This document shows, one piece after another, positions 14,001 through 64,000 of a stretch of 64,000 nucleotides of DNA. Under the pieces are notes generated by a model. The model was not told where the DNA came from and searched no databases. It saw only the letters and a list, made by a program, of their open reading frames with translations. The first letter of the stretch is position 1; each line of letters begins with the position of its first letter. The stretch comes from an uncultured bacterium (GTDB lineage Bacteria > Acidobacteriota > Thermoanaerobaculia > Multivoradales > JAHZIX01): contig CBDUPA010000012.1 of the NCBI GenBank assembly GCA_965368975.1, forward strand, positions 183,049 through 247,048, written 5' to 3'. The translations under genes and the position numbers were made by a program.

Positions 14001-17000
14001 GCACTGCCGCTGACCCCCAACGGCAAGGTCGACCACCGGGCGCTGCTGGCGCGCCATCTGCCGGAGGCCGAGCTGGCCGGGCGGGCGCCGTCGACGGAGC
14101 ATGAGCGGCTCGTCGCTCGGGTCTTCGCCGAGGTGCTGGAGGGGCCGCTGGAGAGGGCAGGAGACGAACTGCTGCCTGTGTCGAGCCATTTCTTCGACCT
14201 GGGTGGCCACAGCTTGCTGGCCGTGCGCGTGGTGTCGCGGTTGCGCGAGCAGGTGGCGGGCGAAGGCACGGGACCGGCTCCGGAGCTGCCCGTCTCGATC
14301 CTGTTCGACCATCCGACCGTCGAGGCACTGGCGGCGTACCTGCAGGAGACCTCCGGTGCGAGCGATGCACCGACCTTCGACCTACCACCCGTCGTGCCGG
14401 TCGATCGCGCGGCCTTCCCCGACGGTCCGCCGCTCAGCTTCGCGCAGCAGCGCCTGTGGTTTCTCGACCGCCTGGAGCCGGGCAAGGCGTTCTACAACAT
14501 TGCCGCCGCCGTCGAGTTGCGCGGCCGGCTCGACCTGGGCGCTTGCCAGCGTGCGGCCGCCGCGGTGGTGGCGCGCCACGAGGTGCTGCGCACTACCTAC
14601 GCCGTGCGCGACGGCCGCCCCTTCCAGAAGATTGCGCCGCCCACGGATCGGCTCACGCTGCCGCGCGTCGACCTGACGGTGCTCGGCGAGGCCGACCGCG
14701 ACACCGTGACGCGCACGCTGGCGCGGCGTGAGAGCGCGCGTCCGTTCGACCTCGAAGCCGGGCCGGTGGTGCGCTTGACGCTCTTGGTGCTGATCGAAGC
14801 TGCGAGCGACGCGGTCGAAGCTCTAGACAGCCGTCATGCCCTGCTGCTGACGCTGCACCACATCGCCGGTGACGGCTGGTCGATGGACCACTTCGTGCGC
14901 GACTTCGGGCATCTCTATGCCCGGCAGCTAGATCGGGGGCAGCTGGAAGAAGGCCCGGCGCTGCCGCCGCTGGACGTCCAGTACGCCGACTTCGCCGTCT
15001 GGCAGCAGCGTGTGCTGGCTGACAGTGGCCGCCTGGAGGCCGAGCTGGAGTGGTGGCGCACGACGCTCGAGGGCCTGCCGTCGCAGCTCGAATTGCAGCC
15101 GGACCGTCCGCGCCCAGCGCTGCAGAGCTACAACGGACGCACCCTGCCGTTCGACCTCGACGGTCCTCTAACCGAGGCCGTGCGCCGCGCCGCGCGCACG
15201 GCCGGCGTGACGCCCTTCATGCTCCTGCTCGCCGCCTTCCAGGCCCTGCTCGGTCGCCTGGCCGGGGTGCATGATCTCGCCGTCGGTACGCCGGTGGCCG
15301 GACGCCTGCGCCCGGAGGTCGAGCCGGTGATCGGCTGCTTTGTCAATACTCTGATTCTGCGCGCTGACCTGGGGCCTGACCTGCAGGCTGACGGGCGCCG
15401 TCTCGACTTCGCCAGCTTCCTGCAGCGCACCCGCCGCGCCACCCTCGACGCCTTCGCGCACCAGCAGGTGCCGTTCGAACGCCTGGTCGACGCCCTCGCG
15501 CCGCAGCGCGACCTTGGCCACGCGCCGCTGTTCCAGGTCATGTTTGTGCTCAACAACGCACCGCTCGGCCGTCTGTCGCTGCCCGGCCTGGAGCTGGCGC
15601 CGCTGCCGTCGGCTACCGGCACTAGCCAGTTCGACCTGACCCTGGCGCTGCAGGAGACCGGCGACGGCGCGCGCCTGCTGGGCGAGTTCGAGTACGCCTC
15701 CGATCTCTTCGATGCCACCACCATCGCGCGCCTCGCCGCCGCCACCCGCGTCCTGCTCGCTGCCGCCCTGGCGCGACCGGAGACCGCCATCGACACCTTG
15801 CCCCTGCTGTCCGTCGCGGCGCGGCACCAGCTGGTGCACGAGTGGTCGACGGCATGGTCGCCGGCAGGGTCGACGGAAGCTGCAGGCCGCGGAGACCAGG
15901 TCGACCTGGCGGCGCTCGGTAAAGAGCGTGCGCACTCGACGCCGGACGTGGTCGCGCTTGTGGGCCAAGTGGCAGGGGGTCGGTGGGCGGGCCGGTGGGC
16001 GGGTGTCGACCAGGTGCTCACCTGGGGCGCCGTGGAAGCTCGCGTCGCGGTGCAGGCGGAAGACCTCGCCGAGCGCTTCGCTGGTGCCGAGACCCCGGTC
16101 GCCGTCAGCCTCGGCCGGCGTCCCGAGACGATCGTCCTGCTGCTGGCCTTGCTGCGCGCCGGTGTGCCGTACCTGCCGTTGGAGCCAAGCTGGCCGCAGG
16201 CGAGGAAGCGGCAGGTGGTGGAGGATGCGGGGGCGGTGGAGCTGGCTCTGGGGAGGGCGCACGCCCGTGCGCCCCTACATCCCGCCCAACCCCCCGACTC
16301 GATTGCGCAGGTCACGAGCAACCCGAACGGCGGTCCGCCTCTGCGCGGCATCACACCGGTGGCGGATCGCAAGAAGATTTCTCAGGAAGCGTCAGTCTCC
16401 CCGCGTACGCGCAACGCGTTGGGGGCAGGGGAGGGGCGTAGGGGCGCACGGATGTGCGCCCTGAGGGGCCCCGCCTCCCACCTCGCCTACCTCATCTACA
16501 CCTCCGGCTCCACCGGTACCCCCAAGGGGGTCGCCGTCTCGCGCGGGGCCCTGGCCACCTTCTTGACCGCGTCGCTGCGCCGGCACCGCGTCACGGCTGA
16601 CGATCGGGCGGTGGCCTTCGCGTCGCTCAGCTTCGACTCCAGCATCGAAGAGATCCTGCTGCCGCTGGCGGCGGGGGGCTCGGTGTGGCTGCGACCGTCG
16701 GTGATGCCGTCGCCGGTCGAGTTGCTGCGCCGCTTCGCCGAGACGCGGGTGACGCTGGCGACGTTGCCGACGGCGTACTGGCACACGCTGGTGTCGACGC
16801 TGGAGCGTGCGGACGCACGCCTGCCGATGAGTCTGCCGGTGTGTCTGCCGGCGAGTCTGCGCCGCATCATCATCGGAGGCGAAGCGGCGTCGCCGGAGAT
16901 GGTGGAGCGCTGGCTGGCGTTGCCCTCGAGCGCCTCCGTGTCGGGACGTCTGCCTGAGCTGGTCAACACCTACGGACCCACCGAGGCCACCGTCGTGGCG

Positions 17001-64000: not shown

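Follow-up and report, generated by a model that had tools for sequence, protein, structure and literature searches.

In a 64,000-nucleotide stretch of the genome of an uncultured acidobacterium (lineage JAHZIX01; contig C12:183049-247048, hereafter the window, whose end coincides with the end of the contig), two hybrid nonribosomal peptide synthetase-polyketide synthase (NRPS-PKS) genes carry palindromes with a GTAG tag, most of them inserted in frame into loops of adenylation (A) domains. Here, we show that these palindromes belong to an ordinary genomic population of GTAG-tagged repetitive extragenic palindromic (REP) elements and REP doublets forming hairpins (REPINs), with a linked REP-associated tyrosine transposase (RAYT), and that the intragenic copies have arisen repeatedly and independently. 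In a structural model the inserts occupy low-confidence, apparently disordered loops of a normal A-domain fold. We consider it probable that they are tolerated selfish DNA, inserted time and again and marking the sites at which a synthetase is permissive; the inserts would presumably be translated and would be neutral to their hosts.

A REP/REPIN population with a linked RAYT

The genome (7.13 Mb in 59 contigs, G+C 65%; C1, C3, C6, C7, C10, C14, C17, C22, C25 and C39 denote other contigs of the same genome) contains two families of these elements. Family 2 was sought with a structural pattern that fixed the GTAGGGG head, the loop and the closing bases and left the sequence of the 4-bp stem free as long as its strands were complementary; the reversed pattern served as the control for hairpin counts. 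With up to three defects allowed, this yielded 108 family 2-type sites, against 1 for the control; family 1-type sites with up to two defects numbered 24, against 0. All of the resulting 132 hairpins have a GTAGGGG head and a stem-loop, and the free stem positions covary, giving rise to subfamilies CACC, CGGC, CAGG, CGAC, TAGG and others. Intragenic and extragenic hairpins have these subfamilies in common and are free of defects at similar frequencies (38/52 and 53/80, respectively), and the inverted doublets are far more stable in folding than are shuffled sequences.

Family 1 elements are more complex, with a length of about 205 bp, a partly conserved interior and two arms of about 50 nt, each comprising a hairpin, the GTAG tag and a G-rich run. 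The exact family 1 head, GTAGGGGCGCAC, occurs seven times in the window (16267-, 16438+, 35836-, 36007+, 57088+, 63760- and 63931+, the sign denoting the strand); with up to two mismatches it has 30 matches there, compared to 12.8 expected, and none of 100 shuffles reached 30. A preliminary description of the window, made from its sequence alone, had advised searching the genome for both consensus types, and both were indeed found elsewhere, including outside genes; the extragenic copies of family 1 lie at C1:298725-298960 and C3:441513-441757.

The same description had called for a search for a RAYT gene flanked by REPs, and one gene bracketed by related REPINs was found. A genome search for Y1_Tnp returned three matches, the best formed of which is a 170-aa open reading frame (ORF; C1:320810-321322) with an HUH motif. 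This ORF scores 25.4 bits against Pfam Y1_Tnp (cut-off 23), and its sole NCBIfam match is REP_Tyr_transpos (REP-associated tyrosine transposase; E 6.9e-19). It is single copy in the genome, has homologues of 36-53% identity in 13 of 30 relatives, and has one REPIN doublet on either flank, both of which are matched by the family 1 nhmmer profile (E 1e-12). The other two RAYT-like ORFs (C14:98200-98424, 316 aa, and C10:162493-162696, 343 aa) match REP_Tyr_transpos weakly, have no REP within about 1.5 kb and were rejected as candidates. Presumably, it is the single RAYT that mobilises the elements; this rests on the multiple origins seen on the A-domain tree (see below) and on the shared population.

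Contig breaks fall within 400 bases of an intragenic REP at two places, window 63955-64000 and C22:321-346. The assembly probably fragments at REP repeats, and all counts given here are therefore lower bounds.

In-frame copies in synthetase genes

Using the condensation (C), ketosynthase (KS), acyltransferase (AT) and A domains of the window as seeds, we located 97 NRPS/PKS ORFs, which make up 930,795 bases, or 13.1% of the genome, and the longest of which encodes 14,804 aa. As many as 52 of the 132 hairpins (39%) lie in frame within these ORFs (binomial p 4e-14), and the remaining 80 lie outside them. Copies were classed as intragenic on the basis of stop-to-stop ORFs with a GC3-GC2 coding signal, a definition that copies in short genes may escape. 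Among the 117 strict hairpins, 45 are in ORFs of at least 1500 aa, 67 are outside any coding-signal ORF of at least 300 aa, and 5 are in ORFs of 300-1499 aa, three of these being chance matches. In total, five strict matches were discarded as chance hairpins (L005, luciferase-like; L006, peptidase; L007, VWA; L031, carrier domain; L034, TPR protein), because their Pfam context is ordinary conserved coding sequence and their stems are atypical. The reading phases of the 52 intragenic hairpins are spread over all five stop-free phases (19, 12, 12, 5 and 4), while the phase that would place the TAG of GTAG in frame is not used by any of them.

The hairpins concentrate at two positions in the A domain. 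A hidden Markov model built from the window's A domains located 215 domains with recognisable A2 and A3 motifs and 206 A8-A9 loops. The A2-A3 loops (50.6 kb, 0.71% of the genome) hold 24 hairpins, 18 of family 2 and 6 of family 1, and the A8-A9 loops (16.8 kb, 0.24%) hold 13; the A2-A3 counts exclude window domain 9, whose A3 lies beyond the contig end. An element is present in 18/215 A2-A3 loops and 8/206 A8-A9 loops. Inspection of the Pfam context of 40 intragenic groups, with the five chance matches dropped, placed 15 sites in A2-A3 (plus that of domain 9), 8 in A8-A9 and 2 elsewhere in A domains; 2 in C-A linkers, 2 inside C domains and 1 in a linker between a carrier (T) and a C domain; 2 in linkers between ketoreductase (KR) and acyl carrier protein (ACP) domains, 1 in an AT-KR region and 1 between the halves of a dehydratase (DH) domain; and 1 in a linker of an FGE-sulfatase protein. 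Pfam returned no family for the inserted segments in these groups. These data support the earlier suggestion that selfish palindromes of the RAYT type have an intragenic hot spot in megasynthases.

The two loops respond differently. A2-A3 loops with an element (median 77 aa, n=18) are no longer than those without (78 aa, n=197; Mann-Whitney p 0.35), and what remains of them after removal of the REP is shorter than the REP-free length (median 62.5 aa; p 1.3e-4). Since these loops are not lengthened, the element replaces native residues, and the proposal that the native A2-A3 loop is replaced rather than interrupted is borne out by the statistics. A8-A9 loops, on the other hand, are lengthened (median 50.5 aa with an element, n=8, compared to 24 aa without, n=198; p 1.2e-4) and therefore represent plain insertion; their non-REP remainder (median 26 aa) does not differ from the REP-free length (p 0.41). 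The inserts measure 9-69 aa. A spacing of 11-20 residues separates the right edge of the element from A3 in 13/18 loops and from A9 in 8/8. An example of replacement is provided by window A domain 6, which has a family 1 element where its paralogue on C25 (72.6% identity) has a shorter loop, and that shorter loop itself contains a decayed family 2 hairpin. We also entertained the idea that most A2-A3 loops hold old REPs. REP-free A2-A3 loops show no excess of hairpins over control segments (stem of at least 8: 65/197 versus 58/215), and with 4-5 defects allowed, the pattern gained few sites beyond those of the control; for these reasons, the idea was dropped.

An AlphaFold model of A domain 6, for which an alignment of 21 A domains from the genome was used, has a mean pLDDT of 76 and a pTM of 0.67 and is confident except at residues 180-190, 200-254 and 577-605 (pLDDT below 50). 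These stretches are the two REP-derived segments (family 1, residues 181-249; family 2 doublet, about 579-610). The model matches solved NRPS A domains, including those of Txo2, DhbF, EntF and PheA, with E down to 2e-53, and thus shows the inserts as predicted disordered loops on a normal fold. Carrier domains retain their core motifs (A3 in 22/22, A8 in 22/22 and A10 in 21/22) at least as often as other A domains do, and the host ORFs stay open over up to 44 kb; the gene decay that had been named among the outcomes overturning the selfish-palindrome reading is not what we see.

Within the window itself, inverted-repeat and pattern searches recovered all of the copies that had been listed earlier, and these searches together with ORF checks confirmed their coordinates and in-frame placement (Table 1). 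Every synthetase copy lies within one of the two open frames, and an alignment of the window's nine A domains puts inserts between A2 and A3 in six of them: domains 2, 6, 8 and 9 (family 1) and 5 and 7 (family 2). Of the family 1 copies that the preliminary description had listed as doublets, that at 56952 has lost its left arm and that at 63751 has a truncated left hairpin. Its family 2 doublet at 53441 exists but pairs two different stem subfamilies, and its intergenic copy near 8977 is likewise real but belongs to a further subfamily. For the copies that it had put at 33494 and 37014 (A small subdomain) and at 61889 (ACP-C linker), the Pfam context agrees.

Table 1. Synthetase genes and palindromic elements of the window (window coordinates; hairpins and arms where resolved)
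Feature	Position	Strand	Details
Single REP hairpin, subfamily CGTC, extragenic	8978..9003	-	Head GTAGGGGCGTCC at 8992-9003; between minus-strand genes; no coding frame across; adjoining ORFs end at 9029 and start at 8886 (minus strand)
Hybrid NRPS-PKS gene 1	10686..37526	+	8946 aa; six A domains
Family 1 element, REPIN-like, 209 bp, A2-A3 loop of A domain 2	16254..16462	+	nhmmer E 1.7e-55; hairpins 16255-16278 (-) and 16438-16461 (+); inverted arms 16254-16301/16415-16462
Family 2 REPIN doublet, A2-A3 loop of A domain 5	32389..32499	+	CACC hairpins 32395-32420 (+) and 32468-32493 (-); arms 34 nt, 97% complementary; RNA fold over 131 nt
Single family 2 hairpin, A8-A9 loop (A small subdomain) of A domain 5	33496..33521	+	Pfam context: within AMP-binding_C (412-495), element at about 450
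Family 1 element, 208 bp, 69 codons, A2-A3 loop of A domain 6	35823..36030	+	nhmmer E 1.7e-60; inverted arms 35824-35863/35991-36030; RNA fold over 226 nt
Family 2 doublet, A8-A9 loop of A domain 6	37018..37110	+	Hairpins 37018-37043 (+) and 37085-37110 (-); inverted repeat 37020-37108; AMP-binding_C matched only from profile position 42
Hybrid NRPS-PKS gene 2	51462..63998	+	At least 4179 aa, open at contig end; three A domains
Family 2 doublet, A2-A3 loop of A domain 7	53441..53545	+	CACC hairpin 53448-53473 (+), CAGG hairpin 53514-53539 (-)
Family 1 element without left arm, A2-A3 loop of A domain 8	56952..57112	+	Right hairpin 57088-57111; matches family 1 profile positions 48-239 only, E 7e-43
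Single family 2 hairpin (CGGC), carrier-to-condensation linker	61894..61919	+	Pfam context: PP-binding 374-438, element at about 450, Condensation 471-878
Family 1 element, A2-A3 loop of A domain 9	63751..63955	+	E 7e-62; left hairpin truncated; inverted arms 63742-63787/63915-63960; contig ends 45 bases downstream

The first synthetase gene has the module order C-A-T, C-A-T, KS-T, C-A-T, C-A-T, KS-AT-T, C-A-T, C-A-T; its module 3 (17790-21542) consists of KS, linker and carrier without an acyltransferase domain, whereas module 6 has one. The two synthetase genes are separated by three paralogous genes (37530-40049, 46345-48042 and 48870-51251) whose products join a Ser/Thr kinase domain to an FGE-sulfatase domain, two of the three having an additional N-terminal SEFIR/TIR domain. 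The sole REP found in frame in a gene of ordinary size (C14:32401) likewise has an FGE-sulfatase protein as its host. At the other end of the window, positions 5-1477 code for the C-terminal portion of the R subunit of a type I restriction enzyme.

Repeated origins and competing explanations

A FastTree phylogeny of 214 A-domain cores (A3 plus 330 residues, the loop being left out) requires at least 14 gains or losses to account for the 18 carriers, and a single ancestral insertion is thereby excluded; independent insertion, which the preliminary description had proposed to test with A-domain trees, is further reflected in sister domains that differ in the subfamily or phase of their elements. 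When the labels were shuffled, the tree required 13-18 changes, and only 4 of 2,000 shuffles gave 14 or fewer. Four sister pairs account for this slight clustering, three of them joining the window's cluster to the 14,804-aa ORF of C25. In each of these three pairs (window A5, A6 and A7) the partners differ in the respects just mentioned, and in the fourth, a C1/C7 pair, the type of element differs too. Overall identity among the family 1 copies is 59-77%, and these copies resemble one another no more closely than they resemble the two extragenic ones; the A-domain DNA flanking them is 56-64% identical. The copy at 16254 differs from the remaining three in the frame in which its central part is read.

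It could be argued that the palindromes are not mobile DNA at all but old A-domain loop sequence spread by module duplication. The mild clustering on the tree would fit such an origin, as would a REP-like remnant at the same place in two paralogue partners (C25 at 14261, with 3 defects, and C39 at 3510, a variant hairpin). However, three-fifths of the hairpins (80/132) lie outside megasynthase ORFs, and REPIN doublets bracket the RAYT. Old loop sequence is also difficult to reconcile with the number of changes on the tree, with the use of five phases and both orientations, and with the deviant central frame of the 16254 copy. Moreover, carrier domains are mostly only 41-57% identical in protein sequence to their nearest paralogue, and yet most of the hairpins are defect-free. 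We regard this explanation as largely refuted, and its probability as very small.

We favour instead a model in which non-autonomous GTAG palindromes, presumably mobilised by the RAYT, have landed repeatedly inside NRPS/PKS genes and survive only where a stop-free, in-frame copy would yield a flexible surface loop on translation. The survivors concentrate in A2-A3 and A8-A9, loops that naturally accept whole embedded domains, with others in interdomain linkers. On this model, the copies would be tolerated passengers rather than novel parts of the enzymes, and would amount to an insertion scan of the synthetases done by nature.

Several observations do not sit easily with tolerance of selfish DNA. 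The unchanged length of the A2-A3 loops requires either compensating deletions or selection on loop length. Hairpins are about four times as dense in megasynthase ORFs (52 per 0.93 Mb) as elsewhere in the genome (80 per 6.2 Mb, intergenic DNA included), an excess that tolerance alone may not explain; targeting, local hopping or some benefit are all possible. The intragenic stems are as perfectly paired as the extragenic ones, which could mean recent arrival or maintenance. With respect to mobilisation, the RAYT scores 68 bits, below the NCBIfam curated cut-off of 80, and no RAYT with flanking family 2 hairpins was found among the Y1_Tnp matches of the genome. Four of the six full family 1 elements reside in the single gene cluster of the window. 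Lastly, no empty orthologous site was seen: the family 2 hairpin is present in none of the 30 related genomes searched, and this genome is the sole member of its genus in the collection.

Some of these same observations would be expected if the hairpins were kept for a role at the RNA or DNA level in mRNAs of 26-45 kb, for example, in protection from 3′ exonucleases, in pausing of ribosomes at the borders of subdomains for cotranslational folding, or as gyrase sites. Functions of REPs in mRNA stability and supercoiling have been described (PMC3733652), the fourfold density and the intactness of intragenic hairpins are as such a role would have them, and so is the similar spacing of the right edge ahead of A3 and A9. 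The doublets are also very stable (-132 kcal/mol, z -6.7, for that at 35823, and -91.7 kcal/mol, z -9.8, for that at 32389). On the other hand, about nine in ten A domains lack an element, the REP-free loops show no hairpin excess over controls, and those elements that are present are heterogeneous: some are single, some are doublets and some have decayed, and they use five phases and either orientation. Taken together, this makes a role in the transcript or in the chromosome unlikely, although of the alternatives to selfish DNA it is the one we take most seriously.

The preliminary description had also suggested that the elements supply recombination anchors, for which our comparisons gave no support. 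In its fuller form, the suggestion is that they act as portable homology or landing pads for exchange of the A3-A9 core or for insertion of auxiliary domains and have been enriched via selected recombinants. Its appeal is that the two hot spots bracket A3-A9, a recurrent unit of natural exchange in microcystin synthetases according to PMC8097286, that window A domains 5 and 6 have elements at both sites, and that the A8-A9 site coincides with that of the methyltransferase inserts of this genome (see below). However, identity along four pairs of close paralogues does not change abruptly at the elements; between window A6 and C25, the increase falls near the beginning of the A domain, not at the REP. 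Sister domains carry different types of REP, both of the methyltransferase-interrupted A domains are without a REP at their junctions, and the two domains in which both sites are filled compare with about one expected by chance (from 18/215 and 8/206). We therefore think it improbable that the elements serve as anchors.

Tolerated selfish DNA, by contrast, is well served by the nature of the sites themselves. Interrupted A domains are known in which the insert lies between A8 and A9 or, less often, between A2 and A3 (PMC11355689 and PMC8097286). Two A domains of the present genome have a methyltransferase between A8 and A9 (C17:79170-80792, L206, and C6:839-2611, L207), with A8-to-A9 distances of 497 and 554 residues. 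The methyltransferases join AMP-binding_C at profile positions 38 and 41; the REP inserts split it at about positions 35-43. Of the three meanings suggested earlier, the marking of a tolerant loop is the one that our data favour, given that the A8-A9 hot spot is the site of methyltransferase insertion and that both inserts of A domain 6 are modelled as low-confidence loops.

Known systems, relatives and meaning

Like the GTAG REPs and REPINs associated with RAYT (TnpA_REP) (Bertels & Rainey 2011, PMC3116915; Di Nocera et al. 2013, PMC3733652), the elements described here have a GTAG head beside a G+C-rich imperfect palindrome. They further share with REPIN-RAYT systems inverted doublets, several stem subfamilies per genome, and a single-copy HUH tyrosine transposase bracketed by repeats. 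Family 1, with its greater length (about 205 bp) and a conserved segment in its interior, looks more MITE-like (resembling miniature inverted-repeat transposable elements) than do the usual REPs. In-frame intragenic GTAG REPs are not in themselves new; they have already been described (PMC3733652), with emphasis on genes of DNA repair and replication, whereas nearly all of the present host genes are NRPS/PKS genes. Also unlike the published REPs, 39% of this population is intragenic and two recurrent loops are occupied many times. We found no account in the literature of systematic colonisation of megasynthase loops, the precedent found being one supplementary-table row, which lists a REP dimer at residues 823-859 of the Pseudomonas syringae NRPS Psyr_1958 (Additional file 3 of PMC3733652).

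Rickettsia palindromic elements, as they are portrayed in PMC3733652, are similar in being in-frame palindromic inserts whose extra peptide is read through in genes that remain functional. There is no sequence relation, however, and the Rickettsia elements reside in many unrelated housekeeping proteins of a reduced genome, whereas those hosts studied here are almost exclusively megasynthases, and a cognate RAYT is present. Interrupted A domains of the A-M-A type (TioN, TioS and KtzH; PMC11355689) have the same two break sites, A2-A3 and A8-A9. They differ in that their insert is folded and catalytic, while the inserts in question here are 9-69 residues of what is predicted, at low confidence, to be coil derived from repeat DNA.

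The element at 35823-36030 is covered by metagenome contigs from three studies that share about 91-93% identity with the window, and it has therefore been retained in close relatives; one paired +1/-1 change inside the element preserves the frame. Farther afield, the exact 26-nt family 2 hairpin was found in 91 stretches from genomes labelled Planctomycetia, Geobacteraceae, Binatia and others. In none of the 80 loci examined from these stretches does it lie in an A domain; 10 of the 80 are within long ORFs, six of which have a Pfam match (TPR, UvrA or AAA_16) and four of which do not. Similarly, no family 1 hairpin was found in an A domain in 71 metagenome stretches, where most copies lie at gene ends. 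In these other organisms the hairpins are extragenic or have modular proteins of other kinds as hosts. Many of the 26-nt copies (loci L044-L123) come from a single metagenome-assembled genome (MAG) of Planctomycetia, others being from Geobacteraceae, Binatia, Truepera, Nitrospinae and Chloroflexi, and one Desulfuromonadales MAG has the hairpin in frame in uvrA (L062). Identical REPs in several phyla are unexpected for elements that are thought to be vertically inherited.

REPs are defined as extragenic, and location between genes is the usual criterion for recognising them, yet 52 of these 132 hairpins, two-fifths of the population, are inside megasynthase frames. At the level of pattern, the result is that the two hot spots equal the sites of domain insertion and that loop length is preserved at one of them. 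One might go further and see REPs as a driver of NRPS diversification, with hairpins at A2-A3 and A8-A9 seeding homology or fragile sites for A-core swaps and the embedding of domains; we consider this improbable, much as we do the anchors discussed above, but if true, it would apply to REP-rich, NRPS-rich lineages. As tolerated passengers, the elements would instead amount to a natural insertion scan, showing where A, C and DH domains and the linkers between domains accept 9-69 extra residues. Because both hot spots coincide with positions at which nature and engineers alike embed domains, such a scan would be directly useful for NRPS engineering. For the elements themselves, megasynthase loops may constitute a niche in which REPINs can persist in gene-dense, NRPS-rich genomes.

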